Source of the DNA: a virus
Taxonomy: Duplodnaviria; Heunggongvirae; Uroviricota; Caudoviricetes
Virus record (IMG/VR): IMGVR_UViG_2703718776_000018
Length of the DNA stretch: 18,590 nucleotides
Strand: one strand, 5' to 3'
Below the pieces are notes generated by a model, which ran no database searches, was not told the DNA's origin, and was given only the letters and a program-made list of their open reading frames with translations. A program made the translations under genes and the position numbers. This document shows, piece by piece, positions 3,836-18,590 of the stretch; the first letter of the stretch is position 1, and the number at the start of each line of letters is the position of its first letter.

Positions 3836-4145
3836 AATCGCAGCGCCATTAGGCGGAGATGCCATTATCGAATTTGATGATAATGAAGAAGTTTCCGGGC
3901 GTTTAAGCATTATCTCCGGTGACATTACCGAGGACATGATCGCTGAAGCCATAGCTGGGGCAAATCCCAATAGCTATATGGGATTCGTTAACACCCTTGA
4001 TGCTCCCGCAAGTGATGTTCTCCGAACGCTGCATCTTTACGCTGGCTGGTTTGTTGATTGGCCAGCAGTAGATGGTGGCGATGAGGATGATGATGACGAT
4101 GAAGAGGTTTTTAGTGATGAAACAGTAAACCAACTCTTGTATTGA
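3825..4145 (+). CDS. Small, very acidic 106-aa protein translationally coupled to the 995-aa gene
   Basis: Strong SD AAGGAG 7 nt upstream of the ATG at 3825. Overlaps the upstream stop by 11 nt. About 25 Asp/Glu against 4 basic residues, with a C-terminal run DGGDEDDDDDEEVFSDE. Confidence 0.7.
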   Translation: MQIKIAAPLGGDAIIEFDDNEEVSGRLSIISGDITEDMIAEAIAGANPNSYMGFVNTLDAPASDVLRTLHLYAGWFVDWPAVDGGDEDDDDDEEVFSDETVNQLLY

Positions 4146-4274
4146 CAGGAATTGGCATAGAATTGATTGTTCAAATTTCATCCATCACATAGACGACTTC
4201 ATGTTATTTGCCTGATAATTATGGCCTTAATAACCCATGTATATCTTTTGGGTTATATTCTTATCTTTAACAAG

Positions 4275-4320
4275 GTTATAAGAGCGACAATGATAAATTT
4301 ATCACTATCGCTCTTATAAC
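4275..4320. repeat. 46-bp near-perfect palindrome: 13-bp perfect arms (GTTATAAGAGCGA / TCGCTCTTATAAC) enclosing a 14-bp perfect inner palindrome TGATAAATTTATCA; possible bidirectional terminator or protein-binding site
   Basis: Read directly from the sequence; only 2 mismatched positions across 46 bp. Sits between the convergent 106-aa (+) and 95-aa (-) genes. Confidence 0.8.
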
Positions 4321-4348
4321 TCTTTGTTAGCTATAGCTTTAAACAAAT

Positions 4349-4636
4349 TTAGTTTTGAGGCAATGCAACAAAAGTCAGCTCTTGATCTTTGATTAATGCT
4401 TTTGTTTGTTTGGATGTAATTCCCACTTTAGTTTTTACATCATTGTGGAGCTTCTTATACGCTTTTATTTCATCTGCTGTATATCGGAAGCCATTTGCAC
4501 TGTTACTGGACAGTTGAAGTGCGATTACGTCATCACTGACACCCGCATCGCTTAGCTTAGCTATGCGGGTAATAGTGTGGCCTGCGCGAGTGTTTGGGGT
4601 GGATATTTTGTCTAAGAAATTGTTCAGTTTTTCCAT
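4349..4636 (-). CDS. Hypothetical 95-aa protein in an AT-rich cassette; possible HTH-like segment
   Basis: ATG at 4636 with SD GAGGT 8 nt upstream on the reverse strand. Bounded by the palindrome at 4275-4320 and the terminator at 4857-4884. Local GC is clearly lower than the flanks. The segment TITRIAKLSDAGVSDDVIALQL loosely resembles an Xre-type HTH. Confidence 0.65.
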   Translation of the reverse strand: MEKLNNFLDKISTPNTRAGHTITRIAKLSDAGVSDDVIALQLSSNSANGFRYTADEIKAYKKLHNDVKTKVGITSKQTKALIKDQELTFVALPQN

Positions 4637-4856
4637 TGTTTACAACCTCTTACTTGAGTTTATTGCCAGTAGAATTGCCACTATTCTTTTGCCTCAACGA
4701 ATCACAATGTACTGGAATAAGAAACTATGAGCAATACTTACGCTTTGCGAATACAGAAGATGAATAATCAACTTATTACTAAAATGTTAATAATATTATT
4801 CTGTTACATAGTGTTCGCTATAACAATCGGGAGTTGAATGCTAATTCAATAAATAA

Positions 4857-5868: not shown

Positions 5869-6357
5869 TCAAAACGGAATATCGTCGTCAAAGTCCATTG
5901 GAGGTTCGTTATTAGCGTTGCTCTGAGGTTTACCGCCACCACTGTATTGCTGGTGGTTTTGAGGTTGGTTTGATTGCCCCCAGCCATTTGTGGACTGTGA
6001 ATCGTCGCGACGAGCGCCGATCATTTGCATGGTGCCGCCCTGGCTGACGATAATTTCCGTCGTGTAACGTTCTACACCGGCGTCATCTGTCCACTTACGG
6101 GTTTTAAGTTTCCCTTCGATGTAGACCTGAGAACCTTTTCGTAAATACTCACTCGCAATTTCAGCAAGTTTTCCGAACAAAACGACTTTATGCCATTCTG
6201 TTTGCTCTTTCTGTTGGCCCGTTTGCTTGTCGCGCCATGATTCATTCGTTGCGATGCTGAGTCTTCCGACCGCGCCGCCATTTGGTATATACCTGATCTC
6301 CGGGTCTTGCCCCAGGGTGCCAATCAGGATGACTTTGTTTACACCGCGTTGTGCCAC
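5869..6357 (-). CDS. ssb: Single-stranded DNA-binding protein (162 aa), GTG start
   Basis: N-terminus [20 protein letters not shown].. is a typical SSB OB-fold start. Gly/Gln-rich linker and the canonical acidic tail [14 protein letters not shown] 7 nt before the GTG at 6357. Confidence 0.92.
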
Positions 6358-6376
6358 TTATCTTACCTAATAAAAT

Positions 6377-6393
6377 AAAATAATTAGAGCAAC
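6377..6393 (-). promoter_or_regulatory. Candidate C1-repressor-type operator (reverse strand reads GTTGCTCTAATTATTTT) over the presumed ssb promoter
   Basis: 14/17 match to the P1 C1 operator consensus ATTGCTCTAATAAATTT as I recall it, including a perfect TTGCTCTAAT core. Lies 20-36 nt upstream of the ssb GTG. Confidence 0.4.
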
Positions 6394-6526
6394 AATGTAT
6401 ATCTTTGAAACGTAGCTAACAAGTGATTTGCATTATCCTGTGCCTTCTAAAGGGATCGAGTCAGTCGGTATTGGCTGTGAATGGGTGTTTGTCCTGGAGC
6501 GTAAAAAATTCGCTTATGAGGTCTTT

Positions 6527-7084
6527 ATGAAGGGAAAAACAGCCGCAGGAGGCGGTGCAATTTGCGCTATCGCGGTGATGATTACCATCGTGATGGGTAA
6601 TGGCAATGTGCGAACCAACCAGGCGGGGCTTGAGCTGATTGGTAACGCTGAAGGTTGCCGACGTGATCCATACATGTGCCCGGCGGGGGTATGGACTGAC
6701 GGGATCGGTAATACACACGGGGTAACGCCGGGTGTGCGAAAAACCGACCAGCAAATCGCCGCTGATTGGGAAAAGAATATCCTGATCGCTGAACGCTGTA
6801 TTAATCAGCACTTTCGGGGCAAAGACATGCCCGATAATGCCTTCAGTGCAATGACAAGCGCGGCATTCAATATGGGATGCAATAGCTTACGGACCTACTA
6901 CAGCAAAGCGCGAGGCATGCGAGTCGAAACGTCCATCCACAAGTGGGCGCAGAAAGGGGAATGGGTGAATATGTGTAACCATCTCCCTGATTTTGTGAAC
7001 AGTAACGGCGTGCCCCTGCGAGGTTTAAAGATTCGCCGTGAAAAAGAACGCCAGCTTTGCCTGACGGGGCTGATCAATGAATAA
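6527..7084 (+). CDS. lyz: SAR (signal-arrest-release) endolysin, T4-lysozyme family, 185 aa
   Basis: Starts MKGKTAAGGGAICAIAVMITIVMGNG (Gly/Ala-rich SAR domain with Cys13), then NAEGCRRDPYMCPAGVWTDGIGNTHG carrying the Glu/Asp/Thr catalytic residues. Matches my recollection of P1 Lyz. SD GAGG before the ATG at 6527; the ORF-track start at 6428 is a TTG over-extension. Confidence 0.95.
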   Translation: MKGKTAAGGGAICAIAVMITIVMGNGNVRTNQAGLELIGNAEGCRRDPYMCPAGVWTDGIGNTHGVTPGVRKTDQQIAADWEKNILIAERCINQHFRGKDMPDNAFSAMTSAAFNMGCNSLRTYYSKARGMRVETSIHKWAQKGEWVNMCNHLPDFVNSNGVPLRGLKIRREKERQLCLTGLINE

Positions 7085-7331
7085 ACTCCGGCAGCTCCGC
7101 CGACTTTCGACAATGAAGTTATCGCTGGCGGCGATAGTTTTCGACTCGATTTTCATGGCGGTATATGTGCTCAATGAGACGTGGCCACTGGAACCGCTAT
7201 TATATGCCGGGCTTCGGCTGTGCCTGACATTTTTGAGCATGGCTGCAAGATTGATGCAGCAGAAAGAAACCGCTTCAGATTGCCCACGTCGCGCGGTGCG
7301 CAAATATATGGCACGCAGACGAAGGCGATAA
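7077..7331 (+). CDS. Candidate small membrane protein (84 aa; one or two hydrophobic helices, poly-Arg C-terminus) translationally coupled to lyz; possible lysis accessory protein
   Basis: ATG overlaps the lyz stop (ATGAATAA). Hydrophobic stretches LSLAAIVFDSIFMAVYVL and LLYAGLRLCLTFLSMAARL; tail RRAVRKYMARRRRR. Stop at 7329-7331 is followed immediately by a terminator. Confidence 0.45.
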   Translation: MNKLRQLRRLSTMKLSLAAIVFDSIFMAVYVLNETWPLEPLLYAGLRLCLTFLSMAARLMQQKETASDCPRRAVRKYMARRRRR

Positions 7332-10172: not shown

Positions 10173-13100
10173 ATGAACAAGCTATCTATGGGGGTGTTTC
10201 GCTGTTCAAGTGTCAGCGAAATATTGAAATACATTAGGGCAATAACATCTCACCGAGCGCCGATTAAATACGGCGTGGAAAAGGTGGAAGGCAAAAGCTA
10301 TGACCGACTGCGCCGGGAGGCGAATCAGAAGGCGATAGATTTGCTTAATTCACTGGTGGACGGCGCGACACTGACAGATGAACAGCGCCAGATCCTGGCT
10401 GGGTACACCGGTGAAGGCGGCATTGGCGGGTCCGTCTCCGAATATTACACACCAAAGCCGATCGCTGAAGGTGTCTGGGAGATCATGAAGCTCTACGGCG
10501 CGGACGTAGGTAACACTCTGGAACCATCGGCGGGCACCGGCGTTTTTAATGAGACAAAACCGGTTGGTACGGTGATGACTGCGACTGAGATCAGCAGTGT
10601 TTCCGGTCGTATAAACCAGTTGTTACACCCGGAAGACAGCGTACAGATTTCCCCGTTCGAACAGCTGGCTATAAGCACACCTAACGATTCATTCGACCAT
10701 GTTGTGGGTAACGTTCCGTTCGGCGGTCGTGATAACACACGCAACATCGATAAGCCTTACGCAGAAGAAACGGACATGGGTTCTTACTTCATGCTCCGCA
10801 TGCTGGACAAGATAAAGCCAGGCGGATTCATGTGCGTGATTGTGCCGCCGTCCATTGTTTCAGGTTCAAACATGAAGCGGTTACGCCTGCGCCTATCACG
10901 GAAAGCAGAATTTCTTGGTGCCCACCGCTTGCCTACCGGTACTTTTGACGCAAACGGGACCAGTACGGTCGTAGATGTGGTGCTGATGCGCAAACATCCG
11001 GCAGAGATGGCTGAGAAAATCCCCCTGGTGGATGAAAGCACTCTTGAATCAGCAAATGTGCTTTGGCCAACGTTTATTTCTGGCAAGTGGTTTGAAAAGG
11101 ATGGCCGCCGGTTTGTTCATGGCACCCAAGAAAAGGGCTTCCGGGGGCGTATTGAGGTTCGTGCCGACGGTCAGATTGATAACCAGGCTCTTAAAGCGAA
11201 GCTGATTCATCGTTTCGAAAGCCGTATCGACTGGTCTTTGCTCGATATGGCTGAACCGTCACCGACCGCAGACGTTGTTGGTGAAGGGGAAATGCGCCTG
11301 ATTAATGGCGTATGGCAAAAATATGCTGGTGGTCGCTGGATTGAAGCTGATGCCGGGAAGGAACTTAAGATCGATGCTGCCAGTTATGGCGCGGATAGCT
11401 GGGAGGCTCTTCAGCGTAACCTGACTACAACAGAAGGCCGTCTCGGCATGACATTTACCCAGATGGCAAATGTCCGCGATAAGTACACCACATCAATCAG
11501 CGACGATATGGTGCAGCTGGTGGACTGGATTAACAGCCAGCCTGAAAAATACCGTGAACGCTTGTATCGCGGGGCGATGATTGGCCGGATGTTAATTGAA
11601 TATCAGGACATGAAGGCCGCCGGGCATAGTGCTGAACAAATCGAACAGCAGCGCCTTTCTCTGGTATCCCGTTTGCAGGCAGAGATTGACCGTTTTGGTA
11701 ACCCCGGTCGCGGTCCGATAGCGAAATTATCGGGGAGCGGTGCGCGCGCCTGGTTTGCTTTCCGTGGTGCAATTAAGCTGGATGGCACTATTTCTGACGA
11801 GCTGACAGGAAAACTGGTTACGCATGATTCCAGCGCCAGTTATGACTCCACCAGCTATCAGGACACCCTGCGTTATCTCTACAGTGATCTCACTCGCGAT
11901 CCAATCCAGCTCGATGATTTCCGCCTTGCGTTTACCGGCGAACTGCCAGCCAGTGATGATGAGTTGCTTAATTTATTGGCCAGCACCCCTGGCATTGCGG
12001 TTTCACCGTATGGCGGGATTGTTCCGTTCGCCCGCGCCACCAGCGGCGACATTAACGAGATAGTGGCTCCAAAACAGGAATTCCTCGCCACGCTCCCCGA
12101 CGGTCCAGTAAAGAACAACGTCCTTAATCAGCTGGCAGCGATCGAAGAGAAGCGCATCAAGACGCCAGCAGAGAATATCCGCTTTAAGCTCAATAGCCGT
12201 TGGTTCGACCGCTCCGTCATTCTGGAGTTTTTGCAGGAAAACGGCTATCCGGATCTGCGCTATGTGCAGTCAGTGCAGCTGGAAGGCGACGAAATGGTTT
12301 CTGACACCTATCACGGTGGTGATGGTCTGTTCGTCGGGCACCGATACGGTGTCGTCCAGCGCAAGGATAAAGAAACAGGCGAGATCCGCTACGAGTGGGA
12401 CCGTAAATCAGGTGAAAACGCGACCGGGTTCCCGGCACAACTGGAAAAGTATCTCAATGGTGCGCGTATCGGTGGCAAAGATAGCGCGACGGCGAACGGC
12501 TACCGCGAGCAGATGGCACTGCTTGAGGACCAGTTCAATAAGTGGATCAAGACGCACGATCGCTACGATGAGCTGGTTGCCAAATACAACGATGTGTTCA
12601 ATAGCAATATCCCGTATGAACACTCTGGCGATCCGCTTGGGTTGAAGGGATTAAGCGGTAAGCGCCAGCCATTTGATTACCAGAATAGCGAGGTGCGCCG
12701 ACTGTCCGAAGATGGGCGCGGCATCCTGGGCTTCGGCACCGGGCTGGGTAAAACCACGACCGCGCTGGCGCTTGAGGCGTTCAACTATGAGAACGGTCGC
12801 TCCACCCGTACTGCTTATGTAGTGCCTAAAGCAGTGCTGGAAAACTGGTATTACGAAGCAAAAGAGTTCCTGAGTGAAGAGGCATTCAGTAACTACCTGT
12901 TCGTCGGTCTTGATGTGCTGATGGATGGCGATCAGATTCGCCAGGTGCCGGTGCTCGATGAGAACGGTAAACCTGTTCTTGGTACTGATGGCACTCCAGT
13001 TATGCGCGATGCTCTTAAGCTGGCAGATGAAGCCACTATCACGGCGCGGATGAACGCGATCCCGCACTCAAATTACCGTGCAGTCGTGTTTACCAAAGAA

Positions 13101-16100
13101 CAATACGCCCGCATTCCGCTACGTGATGACACCGTAGATGAGCATGCACAAGACATGCTTTATGACTTCGTTGCCGCCGGGCGCGTAGCCAGCGCAATGG
13201 ATTCCGACTCCCATCGTAAAGAGGCGGCGCGTCGCTGGGTATTGTCGGAGTATTCAGATACCGGTACCGAAAAAGCAGAGAAGTATCCGTACTTTGAGGA
13301 TATGGGCTTCGATAGTGTGATCGCCGACGAAGGTCACAACTACCGCAATAGCTATAAAAATGGTCGCGAAGCGTCACAACTGGCCTATCTGCCCACCAGC
13401 GCGGTGGCGCAATCGGCGCGGGATATGGCAATCAAAAACGCGTACCTGATGAAAAAGAATGGCGGGCGCGGGCCGGTTCTCCTGACTGCAACGCCAGTCG
13501 TTAACACCCCGATCGATGCATACAACATGCTTTCTCATGTTCTGCCGAAGGAATACTGGCAGAAGATGGGGATCTACGGTCCTGATGACTTCGTTAAATT
13601 CTTCGGCAAGACCAGGCTGGAAACGGTACAGAAAATCAGCGGTGAAGTTGAAGAAAAAATGGCGCTGGTGGGCTTTGAAAACCTTGATGCGCTGCGCGGT
13701 ATATTCCATCGCTGGGTAACGCTTAAAACGGCGGAAGACGTTAAGGATACCGTGGAGATCCCGGAGCTGGACGAACACCAGCAGGATGCACCACTTACTG
13801 AAGAACAACTGGCGGCGTATGAAGAATTGCGTCAGCAGGCGGAAGCGGCGGCCAAAGCCAACAATGGCGTAACGACCTCGGTCAATGAAGACGGCGTGAT
13901 TGAGCACGAGAAAGCCCGTCCGATCTTCTCAATAATCAGGGATATGGACCGCGTATGTACTGACATGGACCTGTACTATCGCCGGATCACCTATCGTTTC
14001 CTGCCGGAGTACGCAGATGCGGTGCAGCAGCTGGCGGACAGTTTGCCTAAACAAGCCACCAGCGAAGACGACGACAGTGATGATTCAATCACGCAGCAAT
14101 CGCAATACTCCCTGATAGATAAGGGCGAGTTTATTCAGTTGCAGGTTCCGGAAGCGTTCGAGCAGGAAGTGAATAAGCGCCTGGCCAGGTTTGGCATTGA
14201 CGAACAGACCGTAACTCACCCCGTTACGCCCAAATACGCGAAGCTGATTGCCACGCTGAAGGAGTTTTTCCCGGAAGGTAAGCAAATCATCTTCACCGAT
14301 GAAAAAACGCAGCACCAGAAGCTCAAGCGCATTATCTGCAATGCTCTTAACCTTGAACCTTCAAAGGTGGGGATACTGAATGCTCAGACGGTTGCCGAGG
14401 CAGGTAAAACCGGTAAGAAACTGAAAGCGGTTAAACCGCCGAAAGAGCTACCGGATGAACCAACAGATGCACAGATAGCGAAATACAACGAGCAAATGGC
14501 TCTGTATGACGCCTATATCGCGCAGCAAAATGAAATGTCGCTGGGCGGGCTGGAAAAGATTGCTGCCGACTTCCAGGAGGGCCGGACTCCGATCATCATC
14601 TGCAACAAAAAGGCAGAGGTGGGTATCAACCTGCATCGAGGAACGACTGACATCCATCATCTGACGTTGCCATGGACACCAGCCAGTATCGCACAGCGTA
14701 ACGGTCGCGGTGCCCGAGTTGGTTCCAACCGTGCAAGCGTTCGCGTTCACTACTACTGCGGCAAGGGTTCTTTCGATGAATACCGACTGAAGACGCTGAA
14801 GCGTAAAGCAGGCTGGATCTCCGATATCCTCCGTTCAGATAAGTCAGAAATGGAGAACGCCGACGCCAACGATATGATCGAAATGCAGATGTATACCGCT
14901 AAGGATGATGGCGAACGTCTGGCAATGATGCAGGTTCAAATGGATAAGGCGAAAGCCGCGCAACGCGCTCGCCAGAAAGAACAGGCTACTATCGACCTTC
15001 AGAACTACATCAAGGCGCAGCACGCAGCTGGTGAGGATGTGGAGGTGCTTACCGCTGAATTAGAGCGAAGAAAAGCGGAACTCGAAAAGACCACCGCCGA
15101 CGTCGCCAAATTCAAACAGGCGGTAATGGCCAAAGCAGCTGATAACGCAGACTGGAAAGCCCGCTGGGGTAGCGTCCATCACACAGACCGTACGTTGTTA
15201 GCACAGTATCGCGCGTCGTTGAAAAGCGCCATTCAGCGCAAGGCTAATATCTCTCAAGCCATCTCCCGCTATGAGAAATTATTGAACCGTACTCAGAAGG
15301 CCGCGACGGATATCAAACGCCTTCGCCCGCTGGTGGAGGATGCAATAAATAAAGGCATTCTGGATGTTGATCCTGACCTGGTTAACCATGCGAGTGAGTT
15401 CCTTATTATCGGCGATCGCTCATGGCGTGTAGGCCAATACTACGATTGTGCCGGTGATATCGTTCGCATTAAGTCGCTGGACTTCGACAGCCAGCGCGCA
15501 GACGTGGAGATTATCTTTACCTTCAAAGGTACCAAATCGGGTAACTGGGATGTGAAGACGCTGGATAAACAGGTTGATGTAACTCCCGATGAAGATGCTG
15601 TTATGCAGAAAATCAGTGGTGGCGTCTCCATCGCCGGGATTAACGACATCATTTCCTGTGACGATTTCTACCGTTTCCAGCAGCGCGGCATGATCAAAAT
15701 CACTGACTCATACGGCGTTCAGACTACAGAGTCAGGCTATAGCATTGATTTTGTTGGTACCTATACGGACCCACTGAAGCATGCGGTTTACCCGGATCGC
15801 CGTGACGGCGCGCTGAAGTCGTCAATTGCAAAATGGGTGCTTGGTATGATGTCTGAAGGGAATAACCGCCAGGTCCGTTTGGCAGAAGTATTCCTGACTG
15901 AACTGTTTGGCTCCAATTATGGCGATGTAATCGCGTCATATGGAGATACGCTATCCCCTGAAGCAATTCAGGAGAAAATAGCGGATGCGATCGCCAGAAT
16001 GCCGGAGAAAACAAGCCAGGGGGCTACTCGTAACGGGGATTCTGAACTTGAGGTCACCAATGCCATTTTCGGTACCCATGAGTTCCGGGCGTCAGATTAT

Positions 16101-16940
16101 GAGATCACCACAGCACAGTTTGGCACCATTGGCATTTACAGCAATAAAGCCGAGATCAAGCAGGCAATGGACGCAGCAAGCGCGCGTATCGCAGCAGAAC
16201 GGGAAGCCAATCTGAATCATGCAGTCGCCGCACTGACTCAATCGTGGGTAACAGCAATCAGGGAGGCCGCCACCACAGGGAAAATCACACCTGCAATTGC
16301 GGATGTCGTAAACGACGGCTCTAAATTTATGGATGCCTATCAAATGGATGCGGTGAAGTTGCCATCAGCCTATGGTCAACTCAGCTATCGCATGACCTAC
16401 AACCTGGTATCAATGTTTTCCGACCTTGCCATCCTTGGGCTGGTGGATCTTAACGAGGTTACGCCGGAATTGCTCAGCATGCGCAAGAATCATGTGGAGA
16501 TATTGCAGAGAATTAACACGGTTCTTGCCGGGCGCACCGATGAAGAGAAACAGGCCGACGCTGATCGGATAAACCTGGCCCTTGGCAACATCACGGAGGA
16601 AGAAATTGCCGCCAGAAACGAGAAACAAGAAGAGTTATCATCAATACAGGGTGATGCCACCAGCATAGCTCAGTCTCTTGGTCTGAATTATCGCGTATCC
16701 ACCGCCGACCTGAAGATGATGTACGCACCAAAATTCGCCGCTGGCGAGGTATTTGGGCTTCAGGAAGCCTCAGGCATGAAAGGCGTTCTTTTCCGTGCGA
16801 AAGACGCAATCAAGGCGAAATTCGGCGCTCGCTGGCTGCCAGCGAAGGCGAAGAACAGCGATTTCCCGGGTAACTGGTGGATTATCGAGACAAAACACAA
16901 CGTGGCGGACGTTCTGGCCGTCATCCAACAATACGCATAA
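10173..16940 (+). CDS. darB: DarB-type antirestriction protein, 2255 aa: N6-adenine methyltransferase-like domain fused to an SF2 (SNF2/DExH-like) helicase, plus a long uncharacterised C-terminal region
   Basis: SD AAGGA 6 nt before the ATG. MTase motifs LEPSAGTGVF (residues 116-125) and GNVPFGG (179-185, nt 10707-10727). Helicase motifs GFGTGLGKTT (853-862, nt 12729-12758), DEGH (1052-1055, nt 13326-13337), LLTATPVVN, QRNGRGARVG. Length equals P1 DarB as I recall it. Confidence 0.9.
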   Translation: MNKLSMGVFRCSSVSEILKYIRAITSHRAPIKYGVEKVEGKSYDRLRREANQKAIDLLNSLVDGATLTDEQRQILAGYTGEGGIGGSVSEYYTPKPIAEGVWEIMKLYGADVGNTLEPSAGTGVFNETKPVGTVMTATEISSVSGRINQLLHPEDSVQISPFEQLAISTPNDSFDHVVGNVPFGGRDNTRNIDKPYAEETDMGSYFMLRMLDKIKPGGFMCVIVPPSIVSGSNMKRLRLRLSRKAEFLGAHRLPTGTFDANGTSTVVDVVLMRKHPAEMAEKIPLVDESTLESANVLWPTFISGKWFEKDGRRFVHGTQEKGFRGRIEVRADGQIDNQALKAKLIHRFESRIDWSLLDMAEPSPTADVVGEGEMRLINGVWQKYAGGRWIEADAGKELKIDAASYGADSWEALQRNLTTTEGRLGMTFTQMANVRDKYTTSISDDMVQLVDWINSQPEKYRERLYRGAMIGRMLIEYQDMKAAGHSAEQIEQQRLSLVSRLQAEIDRFGNPGRGPIAKLSGSGARAWFAFRGAIKLDGTISDELTGKLVTHDSSASYDSTSYQDTLRYLYSDLTRDPIQLDDFRLAFTGELPASDDELLNLLASTPGIAVSPYGGIVPFARATSGDINEIVAPKQEFLATLPDGPVKNNVLNQLAAIEEKRIKTPAENIRFKLNSRWFDRSVILEFLQENGYPDLRYVQSVQLEGDEMVSDTYHGGDGLFVGHRYGVVQRKDKETGEIRYEWDRKSGENATGFPAQLEKYLNGARIGGKDSATANGYREQMALLEDQFNKWIKTHDRYDELVAKYNDVFNSNIPYEHSGDPLGLKGLSGKRQPFDYQNSEVRRLSEDGRGILGFGTGLGKTTTALALEAFNYENGRSTRTAYVVPKAVLENWYYEAKEFLSEEAFSNYLFVGLDVLMDGDQIRQVPVLDENGKPVLGTDGTPVMRDALKLADEATITARMNAIPHSNYRAVVFTKEQYARIPLRDDTVDEHAQDMLYDFVAAGRVASAMDSDSHRKEAARRWVLSEYSDTGTEKAEKYPYFEDMGFDSVIADEGHNYRNSYKNGREASQLAYLPTSAVAQSARDMAIKNAYLMKKNGGRGPVLLTATPVVNTPIDAYNMLSHVLPKEYWQKMGIYGPDDFVKFFGKTRLETVQKISGEVEEKMALVGFENLDALRGIFHRWVTLKTAEDVKDTVEIPELDEHQQDAPLTEEQLAAYEELRQQAEAAAKANNGVTTSVNEDGVIEHEKARPIFSIIRDMDRVCTDMDLYYRRITYRFLPEYADAVQQLADSLPKQATSEDDDSDDSITQQSQYSLIDKGEFIQLQVPEAFEQEVNKRLARFGIDEQTVTHPVTPKYAKLIATLKEFFPEGKQIIFTDEKTQHQKLKRIICNALNLEPSKVGILNAQTVAEAGKTGKKLKAVKPPKELPDEPTDAQIAKYNEQMALYDAYIAQQNEMSLGGLEKIAADFQEGRTPIIICNKKAEVGINLHRGTTDIHHLTLPWTPASIAQRNGRGARVGSNRASVRVHYYCGKGSFDEYRLKTLKRKAGWISDILRSDKSEMENADANDMIEMQMYTAKDDGERLAMMQVQMDKAKAAQRARQKEQATIDLQNYIKAQHAAGEDVEVLTAELERRKAELEKTTADVAKFKQAVMAKAADNADWKARWGSVHHTDRTLLAQYRASLKSAIQRKANISQAISRYEKLLNRTQKAATDIKRLRPLVEDAINKGILDVDPDLVNHASEFLIIGDRSWRVGQYYDCAGDIVRIKSLDFDSQRADVEIIFTFKGTKSGNWDVKTLDKQVDVTPDEDAVMQKISGGVSIAGINDIISCDDFYRFQQRGMIKITDSYGVQTTESGYSIDFVGTYTDPLKHAVYPDRRDGALKSSIAKWVLGMMSEGNNRQVRLAEVFLTELFGSNYGDVIASYGDTLSPEAIQEKIADAIARMPEKTSQGATRNGDSELEVTNAIFGTHEFRASDYEITTAQFGTIGIYSNKAEIKQAMDAASARIAAEREANLNHAVAALTQSWVTAIREAATTGKITPAIADVVNDGSKFMDAYQMDAVKLPSAYGQLSYRMTYNLVSMFSDLAILGLVDLNEVTPELLSMRKNHVEILQRINTVLAGRTDEEKQADADRINLALGNITEEEIAARNEKQEELSSIQGDATSIAQSLGLNYRVSTADLKMMYAPKFAAGEVFGLQEASGMKGVLFRAKDAIKAKFGARWLPAKAKNSDFPGNWWIIETKHNVADVLAVIQQYA

Positions 16941-16973: not shown

Positions 16974-17414
16974 ATGGCCACACTATCTGATACAATAAAA
17001 CCGAATAAAACATATCTTGAGGCGGTACTGCGTACGGCGTTGTTAGGAAAGACAGAAGACGAATACGTTGATTTCTTCCTGTCAGGGCTACGTGGGCGAT
17101 TACTGAAAAATCCCCGCCTGTACCGCAGCTATGGCCCATACTGGCCGGAAATTAAAAAATTATTACTGGAGCGCGGTTATGGTAATTTCGGTCGTCTCGT
17201 TGACCGTGACGTTCGCAAAATTTACCGTTATGACCGCCCGGCGCTAACACTCATAGCCGCGACGCTCTACAGCCAGGAGCGTTTTGATAATGGTCAGATA
17301 TACTCAGCCTGGCATTTACTGCCAGTGCCTGAAGAAGTTGACGACCAGGACTATGAGTTTGAGTCTTACGATTTGGAAGTTGAAGCCTTGGCACAGGCTG
17401 GAGAGAAAACTTGA
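16974..17414 (+). CDS. ulx: Ulx-like protein (146 aa), co-transcribed downstream of darB
   Basis: ORF directly after darB and overlapping the next gene start. Position and size agree with my recollection of P1 ulx (upstream of lxc). Not verifiable without a search. Confidence 0.6.
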   Translation: MATLSDTIKPNKTYLEAVLRTALLGKTEDEYVDFFLSGLRGRLLKNPRLYRSYGPYWPEIKKLLLERGYGNFGRLVDRDVRKIYRYDRPALTLIAATLYSQERFDNGQIYSAWHLLPVPEEVDDQDYEFESYDLEVEALAQAGEKT

Positions 17415-17659
17415 AAAAGCGATACTACACAGTAAAGCATGGGACGCTACGAGCATTACAAGAGTTTGCTGACAAGCATAACGTTGAGGTGCGCAGGGAA
17501 GGGGGAAGTAAAGCTCTGCGCATGTACCGTCCGGACGGGAAATGGCGGACGGTCGTCGATTTCAAAACTAACAGCGTTCCCCAGGGCGTCCGCGACCGGG
17601 CATTCGAAGAATGGGAACAGATCATCATAGATAACGCATTGCTCCTGAATGCGGATTGA
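17411..17659 (+). CDS. lxc: Lxc/Bof-like small protein (82 aa), TTG start overlapping the ulx stop
   Basis: TTG at 17411 with SD GGAGA 7 nt upstream. Overlap TTGA with the ulx stop. Followed by a terminator. Size and position consistent with P1 lxc (bof) from memory. Confidence 0.5.
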   Translation: MKKRYYTVKHGTLRALQEFADKHNVEVRREGGSKALRMYRPDGKWRTVVDFKTNSVPQGVRDRAFEEWEQIIIDNALLLNAD

Positions 17660-17669
17660 TTTATATATC

Positions 17670-17699
17670 GGGCAGTTGTAGCTGCCCGTTAAATTTTTG
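17670..17699 (+). terminator. Rho-independent terminator (stem CGGGCAG/CTGCCCG, loop TTGTAG, then TTAAATTTTT) between convergent genes
   Basis: Seen in sequence, immediately after the lxc-like stop and before the stop of the reverse-strand 196-aa gene. Confidence 0.75.
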
Positions 17700-17710
17700 C
17701 CGCTCTTCAA

Positions 17711-18301
17711 TTACACTATATCTTTTACTATAGAATTAGCATCCTCCAGTACGCCAATTTCTTCGATGCGTTTTTTTATTATTAATCGATTTGAAGCAAT
17801 GATTGTGGACCATCTTGTTTCCCAAGCTCTATAAGCATGCCACGAATAACCTAATCTCATTTCTTTGCTCATGTTGGACATTGAGTATTCAACGGCGTCT
17901 AAATATTCATTTTCATACTTAGTTCCACCAATTTCTAAAAGGCTGCCGAAATATATAAGCCATTTTGCAAGCTGCTCGTATTGCTCCCAAGCACCACTCT
18001 CTCTTGTTAAATCTCTTTTTTGTTTTATTATTCTCTTGAAAAAATCAACTACTTGTCCGTCATTCCAGTCGAAACCCTCAGATATAATCGAGGAGGTTAT
18101 TTGATAGAATGAATCTTCTAATCTAAGGTATTCATCCTTATAGTTGAAAGTGCCTGATAAAACTCTTTTTATACTTTGTCTGGCTCTTGCTATGACGCCT
18201 TCAATTAACATTATGTTAATGCTCAATCTCTTAAAGAAAGAGTCTATTTCGGTGTTGTCAATTACTCGTATTCCAAAACAATAAAAATAATAATCCTTCA
18301 T
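17711..18301 (-). CDS. Hypothetical 196-aa protein in an AT-rich island next to IS1; function unknown
   Basis: Uninterrupted ORF with ATG at 18301. Region 17700-18374 is markedly AT-rich compared with the darB/ulx side. No SD-like sequence stronger than AAGT upstream. Confidence 0.7.
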   Translation of the reverse strand: MKDYYFYCFGIRVIDNTEIDSFFKRLSINIMLIEGVIARARQSIKRVLSGTFNYKDEYLRLEDSFYQITSSIISEGFDWNDGQVVDFFKRIIKQKRDLTRESGAWEQYEQLAKWLIYFGSLLEIGGTKYENEYLDAVEYSMSNMSKEMRLGYSWHAYRAWETRWSTIIASNRLIIKKRIEEIGVLEDANSIVKDIV

Positions 18302-18331
18302 ATCTTGACTTACTTCACTGCGAGAGATGAA

Positions 18332-18348
18332 AAATATATTAGAGCACA
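18332..18348 (-). promoter_or_regulatory. Candidate C1-repressor-type operator (reverse strand reads TGTGCTCTAATATATTT) upstream of the 196-aa gene
   Basis: 14/17 match to the recalled consensus ATTGCTCTAATAAATTT with a perfect TGCTCTAATA core. Lies 31-47 nt upstream of the ATG at 18301. Confidence 0.4.
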
Positions 18349-18374
18349 GAGCGTTACCTTTCGAGAATATTTTG

Positions 18375-18590
18375 TAATCATTTATGGTAATGACTCCAAC
18401 TTATTGATAGAGTTTTATGTTCAGATAATGCCCGATGACTTTGTCATGCAGCTCCACCGATTTTGAGAACGACAGCGACTTCCGTCACAGCCGTGCCAGG
18501 TGCTGCCTCAGATTCAGGTTATGCCGCTCAATTCGCTGCGTATATCGCTTGCTGATTACGTGCAGCTTTCCCTTCAGGCGGGATTCATAC
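18375..18590 (-). mobile_element. IS1, partial: terminal inverted repeat and 3' portion of the transposase gene; the element continues beyond the window end
   Basis: From 18375 the forward strand reads GGTAATGACTCCAACTTATTGATAG.., the IS1 terminal repeat. The reverse complement through 18590 matches the IS1 3' region I recall (..CTGCATGACAAAGTCATCGGGCATTATCTGAACATAAAAC..). Confidence 0.9.
18390..18590 (-). CDS. insB: IS1 transposase InsB, C-terminal part (runs off the window end)
   Basis: Reverse-strand frame ends ..[17 protein letters not shown] with the stop at 18390-18392, the characteristic InsB C-terminus. Confidence 0.85.

Follow-up and report, generated by a model that had tools for sequence, protein, structure and literature searches.

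A SIR2-family gene split by IS1 beside lxc in a P1-like contig

Gene order and the IS1 boundary

The window analysed here, a stretch of 18,590 nucleotides, is the entire contig LODA01000074.1 of the draft assembly GCA_001609765.1. We assign it to an Escherichia coli P1-like phage-plasmid, an assignment that shares the high probability of the overall reading given below. Towards the right-hand side, darB (10173–16940), ulx (16974–17414) and lxc (17411–17659) follow one another on the plus strand, and the terminator hairpin of lxc (17669–17688, plus strand; also found in an intact plasmid, L001, at 4070–4089) separates them from an open reading frame (ORF) of 196 amino acids that runs convergently to lxc on the minus strand (17711–18301) and is annotated in GenBank as a hypothetical protein (KYV96718.1; AMK90_22220). 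The last feature is the right end of an IS1 element (18386–18590, minus strand), comprising the terminal inverted repeat and the 3′ part of insB and broken off at the contig end; the window stops inside IS1 because assemblers break at repeats. A preliminary description of this DNA had correctly placed the ORF between the lxc terminator and IS1, and was also right that it lies in the most AT-rich part of the window: the GC content of 17711–18385 is 33.8% as opposed to 49.5% for the window, the lowest value among all 675-nt windows. An Rfam scan of the window returned no match. A second low-GC stretch (4001–4750; 36–38% GC) contains a 95-aa minus-strand ORF (4349–4636) and lies between hxr-like and isaA-like genes, where P1 carries IS1 and isaB; the window has no IS1 there.

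Upstream of the ATG of the 196-aa ORF, the same frame runs on for 28 further sense codons and meets no stop before the IS1 boundary. The DNA from 17600 to 18385 matches several P1-like plasmids of E. coli with 100% identity (for example, NZ_CP027575.1); this identity ends exactly at 18385, and the next base is the first base of IS1 (18386, sequence GGTAATGACTCC; 99% identical to the IS1 of P1), so that the junction coincides precisely with the outermost base of the terminal inverted repeat. In the intact plasmids the frame belongs to a 1308-bp gene for a "SIR2 family protein" (WP_032271833.1, 435 aa), in the locus order darB–ulx–lxc / SIR2–mat–ref–c8–cre. The window retains this gene from nucleotide 634 of 1308 onwards (17711–18385, minus strand; codons 212–435 and the stop codon), that is, only the C-terminal 45% of the protein, and the ATG assigned to the ORF is the internal Met240. 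As a gene, the 196-aa ORF is an artefact of calling a start at this methionine; what had been described as an orphan gene is part of codons 212–435 of a 435-codon SIR2 gene split by IS1. Matches to the uncharacterized family PHROG 7567 have the same structure, as the ORF covers only profile positions 240–434 of 434 and the full-length SIR2 protein matches end to end (positions 1–434, 2e-229). For ORFs that lie beside an insertion sequence at a contig end, the open frame upstream is worth checking before a label of 'hypothetical protein' is trusted.

Searches of a phage collection (50,697 records, P1 included) by megablast, blastn and tblastn, with either 17660–18385 or the 196-aa ORF, gave no match; the intact relatives came from plasmid and E. 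coli collections. We found no stand-alone 196-aa version, the short database entries being truncated in other ways or called as partial where a contig ends, and the same SIR2/IS1 junction was absent from every record of the phage, plasmid and E. coli collections searched. The preliminary description had also raised the possibility of a conserved IS1-associated gene of P1. The candidates isaA and isaB, which likewise adjoin IS1 in a P1-type genome, were rejected, as tblastn and blastn showed the ORF to resemble no phage record and the IS1 of P1 sits at another locus, between isaA and isaB near ssb, a site that the window covers without an IS1.

IS1 usually duplicates 9 bp of its target, and one copy of the duplication is present at 18377–18385 (ATCATTTAT on the plus strand, ATAAATGAT on the gene strand). 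The far IS1 junction lies outside the window, and the 9-bp duplication was read from the match to a predicted protein. On the assumption that 9 bp were duplicated and that the left end of IS1, with its known sequence, comes next, the N-terminal half of the gene was predicted to comprise residues 1–214 and an IS1-encoded tail, GDAANLLI. Exactly this 222-aa protein (KYV96619.1/WP_062859568.1; AMK90_21665) is on record, and it comes from the genome that contains the 196-aa ORF. In an exact-sequence look-up, the versions with duplications of 6, 7, 8 and 10 bp were absent, and the 11-bp version, which ends at the junction, had as its sole match a record from another isolate that is marked as partial.

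A junction of this kind could also arise from a chimeric contig end in a draft assembly, with the gene intact in the real plasmid. The window is a short-read contig that ends inside a repeat, and its IS1 carries two unusual substitutions, including one that puts a stop codon into insB, as such an artefact might show. Against this stand the coincidence of the junction with the terminal base of the inverted repeat, and the annotation in the same genome of an N-terminal fragment that carries both the left-end IS1 tail and the 9-bp duplication. Both halves are, furthermore, recorded on two contigs each (the longest, of 97,216 bp, carries both KYW17724.1 and KYW12356.1), which suggests a second assembly with internal junctions, and partial proteins from other isolates stop at or near the same junction (P0138 at residue 214, P0147 at residue 212). 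We therefore regard an assembly artefact as extremely improbable. Relative to canonical IS1, the two substitutions lie at 18411 and 18487, the second of which converts a glycine codon of insB into TGA, 35 codons ahead of the normal end, so this IS1 copy may be transposition-defective, or the differences may be consensus errors at the contig end.

In our reading, a single 435-codon SIR2 gene was once carried in the variable mat–lxc cargo slot, and IS1 transposed into codon 212, duplicating 9 bp. The split left two pieces: an N-terminal fragment of 222 aa, encoded on another contig, and the C-terminal remnant in the window, for which the gene caller used the first in-frame ATG (Met240) to yield a 196-aa 'hypothetical protein'. 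Since no substitution separates the remnant from intact alleles, the insertion is recent.

The intact SIR2 protein and its family

The intact protein matches the Pfam family SIR2_2 (PF13289) over residues 117–252 (1.9e-23; 83.6 bits, cut-off 24.5), and its PADLOC matches are PDC-S25, ThsA, LmuA and Dsr1/2. The 196-aa ORF has no Pfam, NCBIfam or PADLOC match; the window copy is a fragment of a SIR2_2 member and not itself a member, because the profile is matched by the intact homologue and not by the ORF. Sequence matches in the PDB are KomC and ThsA, and His157 of the intact protein aligns with KomC His146, the residue altered in the deposited KomC(H146N), an entry for a SIR2-domain NADase. 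An AlphaFold (AF2) model (pLDDT 86, pTM 0.80; the modelled sequence was an 88%-identical full-length homologue) comprises a six-stranded Rossmann/SIR2 domain (residues 1–253) and an all-helical C-terminal domain (C-domain; residues 258–431) that forms an alpha-solenoid. The best Foldseek matches of the model were DSR2, ThsA and KomC, and those of the C-domain were generic HEAT/ARM-like only. The homology and structure searches proposed in the preliminary description identify the intact relatives as defence-type SIR2 proteins that resemble KomC, ThsA and DSR2.

IS1 cuts the gene inside the helix formed by residues 206–219. The remnant still encodes the end of this helix, the last two SIR2-domain β-strands and the complete alpha-solenoid at the C-terminus, and its Rossmann fold is incomplete, with four of the six strands gone. 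The catalytic residues Asn121 (TTNYD) and His157 (HxHG) are both encoded upstream of the cut at codon 212; the remnant is therefore without them, and they are kept only in the separate 222-aa fragment.

A search for the family gave 705 matches, mostly of around 434 aa, in Gammaproteobacteria and beyond, among which TTNYD and HxHGS are nearly invariant. Values of dN/dS among intact alleles (0.05–0.16) indicate that the family is under strong purifying selection, and the C-domain evolves faster, its dN being 3–7 times that of the SIR2 domain. Within the C-domain, the alignment of residues 334–411 has 16 invariant positions, of which five are tryptophans (for example, W344, W353, W393, W399 and W403); these suggest a conserved core or pocket. 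No conserved partner gene was found at the compared loci, where the SIR2 gene lies beside mat and lxc, beside an integrase or beside unrelated genes (upstream of a Pseudoalteromonas homologue, for example, lies a 207-aa gene that is unrelated to Mat and belongs to no Pfam family), and the absence of such a partner suggests that SIR2 is a single-gene system.

Among known systems, the predicted SIR2 NADase fold of the intact protein is closest to those of KomC, ThsA, DSR2 and the SIR2-STAND protein of AVAST type 5. The cargo gene nevertheless differs from each of these systems. In Thoeris, ThsA binds gcADPR through a C-terminal SLOG domain and has the TIR protein ThsB as a neighbour, whereas the SIR2 cargo has neither a SLOG domain nor a TIR partner; the KomA and KomB neighbours of Kongming are not found beside it; and it has no STAND ATPase as in AVAST type 5. 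DSR1 and DSR2 have about 1000–1200 aa, in contrast to only 435 aa for the intact SIR2 protein, and the NCBIfam Dsr1 and Dsr2 models give scores of 25.8 and 23 bits, far below their cut-off of 1400. The best PADLOC match is PDC-S25 (2.1e-27), which, like PHROG 7567, is uncharacterized; its best stretch covers only profile positions 128–286 of 517, and the C-domain would differ from that of PDC-S25, since the match spans the SIR2 part only.

By analogy with these systems, the intact ancestor was very probably an abortive-infection-type anti-phage gene, and we infer that its product was an abortive-infection NADase whose C-terminal domain sensed a phage cue. The preliminary description had suggested a superinfection-exclusion or abortive-infection function for the 196-aa ORF. 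As an intuition about acquired cargo that probably acts in abortive infection, this fits the ancestor, given that the same slot holds other defence genes in relatives; it does not carry over to a remnant without the catalytic half. In the literature we found no published test of NADase or anti-phage activity for any member of this exact family, no tested member of PDC-S25 (the one mention concerns a predicted system in a strain) and no paper linking SIR2 to P1-like elements. The family, compact (around 434 aa) and widespread, joins a SIR2 domain to an alpha-solenoid and is a natural candidate for a DSR2-like sensor-NADase consisting of a single protein; the plasmid with the IS1-split gene would serve as a natural isogenic knock-out for testing the SIR2 cargo.

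In relatives, this SIR2 gene also occurs in other decayed versions (P0001, P0014 and P0139). They comprise a deletion that joins Mat residues 1–81 in frame to SIR2 from around residue 125, a fusion to an IS3-type transposase after around residue 404, and a 166-aa C-terminal fragment from Met270 on 37 contigs (P0139). We considered recurrent inactivation as a pattern on this basis and dropped it, as the full-length gene is present in 124 of the 127 complete carrier plasmids in PLSDB.

The operator-like 17-mer and expression of the remnant

The preliminary description had drawn attention to a C1-operator-like site upstream of the 196-aa ORF. The site is present: the 17-mer TGTGCTCTAATATATTT (18332–18348, minus strand) matches the consensus ATTGCTCTAATAAATTT at 14 of 17 positions and lies 31–47 nt upstream of the ATG. 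A window-wide operator scan gave three matches (0.04 expected), one of which is the known ssb operator. The probability of a chance match was 0.016 in the 675-nt remnant (dinucleotide shuffles) and 0.043 in the full gene (synonymous codons permuted with the protein fixed). With a PWM score of 17.8 bits, the site falls within the range of 17 P1 sites (14.4–27.4 bits), at its low end, and is comparable to the ref operator (17.1 bits) and the ssb operator of the window (18.5 bits); it has the perfect core TGCTCTAAT of P1 operators and is oriented like the ref and c8 operators of the leftward gene cluster.

In other respects the 17-mer is unlike the C1 operators of P1. It has a G at position 2, unlike all 17 P1 sites, and it lies 670 nt inside a coding sequence and not at a promoter, where it encodes Leu224-Cys-Ser-Asn-Ile-Phe-Phe230 and overlaps the conserved SNIF motif of the family. 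It is also not conserved among relatives, as the P1 operators are: the 17-mer has three mismatches in two allele groups and four in two others, and is absent from alleles of 58% identity, whereas the ref and c8 operators do not differ by a single letter among the five plasmid loci in which that region was compared. The CapRel cargo of phages SJ46 and 673R5 has no such operator-like site. The match is thus better attributed to coding sequence in AT-rich DNA than to a regulatory site, and the drift of the site among alleles beside invariant ref and c8 operators does not support the suggestion that the gene is wired into the immunity circuit.

Nor does the surrounding DNA look like a promoter region, as had been supposed; it is coding sequence. 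No sigma-70-like site of at least 9/12 was found on the minus strand from the ORF to the contig end. The best candidate by eye, TCGAAA (18364–18359) and TAATAT (18341–18336) with a 17-nt spacer, reaches 8/12. The predicted anti-Shine–Dalgarno pairing upstream of the ATG of the ORF is −1.2 kcal/mol, compared with −5.9 at the true start of the intact gene and −5.9 for darB, so a Shine–Dalgarno sequence is likewise lacking. These data bear on the reading in which the 196-aa ORF was acquired as a gene in its own right, is transcribed from a promoter that C1 represses, and serves in superinfection exclusion or abortive infection. The ORF, its AT-richness and the 14/17 match are real, the match is nominally rarer than chance, its PWM score is that of an operator, and a −10-like TAATAT lies in the operator core with a weak −35 (TCGAAA) 17 nt upstream. 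The ORF is, however, an internal piece of a 435-aa protein without the catalytic half and with no stand-alone counterpart, it has neither a promoter at the scan threshold nor a Shine–Dalgarno sequence, and the putative operator is coding in the intact gene and degenerates to four mismatches, or disappears, in other alleles. We consider an independent gene highly improbable.

Binding of C1 at 18332–18348 is conceivable, given a chance probability of 2–4% for the match and a PWM score and orientation that resemble those of real operators. The 17-mer might be a genuine weak C1 operator gained by this SIR2 allele group, in which the Cys225 codon TGC (Gly in the wider family) completes the TGCTCTAAT core, and might control a C1-repressed internal promoter for the C-domain alone; we think this very doubtful. 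Were it so, the built-in TAATAT would serve as the −10 element, the alpha-solenoid C-domain would be made alone as a sensor or decoy fragment of an NADase tied to the immunity state of the prophage, and this domain would be the only product left in the IS1-split copy.

Under the preferred reading, as a remnant of a gene split by IS1, the fragment is best read as a non-functional pseudogene fragment, and the lack of expression signals leads us to infer that it is silent. Transcription could nonetheless reach it, as insA–insB point towards the remnant and read-through from IS1 could give some remnant mRNA. With expression from such read-through or a weak internal promoter, a free alpha-solenoid might act as a dominant-negative, a decoy or a sequestrant of the trigger, its targets being, for example, intact SIR2 proteins of co-resident elements or the phage trigger. 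Modelled alone, the C-domain is predicted to form a fold of its own (pLDDT 89), and small amounts of a stable fragment are therefore conceivable; related defence SIR2 proteins are oligomers or filaments (according to the titles of PDB entries), with which truncated subunits could interfere; and other C-terminal fragments recur, such as that on 37 contigs. Conversely, the remnant has no ribosome-binding site, and a fusion protein with insB is not possible, because the insB stop codon (18401–18403) is in frame and closes the remnant frame. There is no sign of selection on the remnant, which, being 100% identical to intact alleles, has had no time for it; the gene is whole in almost all complete carrier plasmids, and many 'partial' database entries are mere contig ends. 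An active, weakly expressed remnant is accordingly very unlikely, and the two residual possibilities, C1 binding at the in-gene site and a low level of free C-domain with decoy or dominant-negative activity, are improbable even when taken together. The explanation as a whole, in which a defence-type SIR2 gene of an E. coli P1-like phage-plasmid was recently split by IS1 and left a non-functional pseudogene fragment in the window, is in our assessment highly probable.

A second unannotated 17-mer of the window that resembles a C1 operator lies inside the first 71 nt of darB (ATTGCCCTAATGTATTT; 10227–10243, minus strand) and matches the consensus at 14 of 17 positions with a PWM score of 20 bits. 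Phage P1 has the identical 17-mer (OP279344, position 12605), which is not marked as an operator in the P1 reference record. The known ssb operator of the window (Op21; GTTGCTCTAATTATTTT, 6377–6393, minus strand) has three mismatches to the consensus, compared with one in P1, which suggests that the backbone of the window is that of a diverged P1 relative.

Cargo in the mat–lxc interval

We compared the slot between mat and lxc in the window (17660–18385) and in eight further loci (L001, L003–L005, L007, L008, L021 and L022). In Salmonella phage SJ46 and phage vB_EcoM-673R5, it contains a RelA/SpoT-family gene. The SJ46 slot protein is a 373-aa RelA/SpoT protein with Tyr155, which fits the published mutant CapRelSJ46(Y155A); CapRelSJ46 has been shown experimentally to be a capsid-sensing abortive-infection system of phage SJ46 (PMC9712102).

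At least three groups of SIR2 alleles (100%, 84–88% and 57–59% identity) occupy the slot in P1-like plasmids, and SIR2 alleles are found there in more than 120 E. coli plasmids. In P1 itself, the interval holds res and mod (EcoP1I), and the record title "P1 del res del mod" agrees with this. EcoP1I, a type III restriction–modification system, and CapRelSJ46, a fused toxin–antitoxin that pyrophosphorylates tRNA, are both unrelated to SIR2, and share with it the position between mat and the convergent lxc and the status of cargo with a defence function; unlike both, the SIR2 cargo of the window is inactivated. On these comparisons, the mat–lxc interval behaves as a swap site, or hotspot, for defence cargo, and the suggestion of horizontally acquired cargo is borne out by AT-rich DNA in a slot occupied by res/mod in P1 and by CapRel in SJ46. 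The finding as first written matters little; the hotspot, and the family that combines SIR2 with an alpha-solenoid, are by-products of some value.

SIR2 homologues are also carried outside this slot. In four E. coli chromosomes (L014–L017), a 59%-identical homologue (6001–7311 of each locus) lies at the edge of an integrated prophage beside the ccm operon, a typical position for prophage defence cargo, and an integrase adjoins it in three of the four loci.
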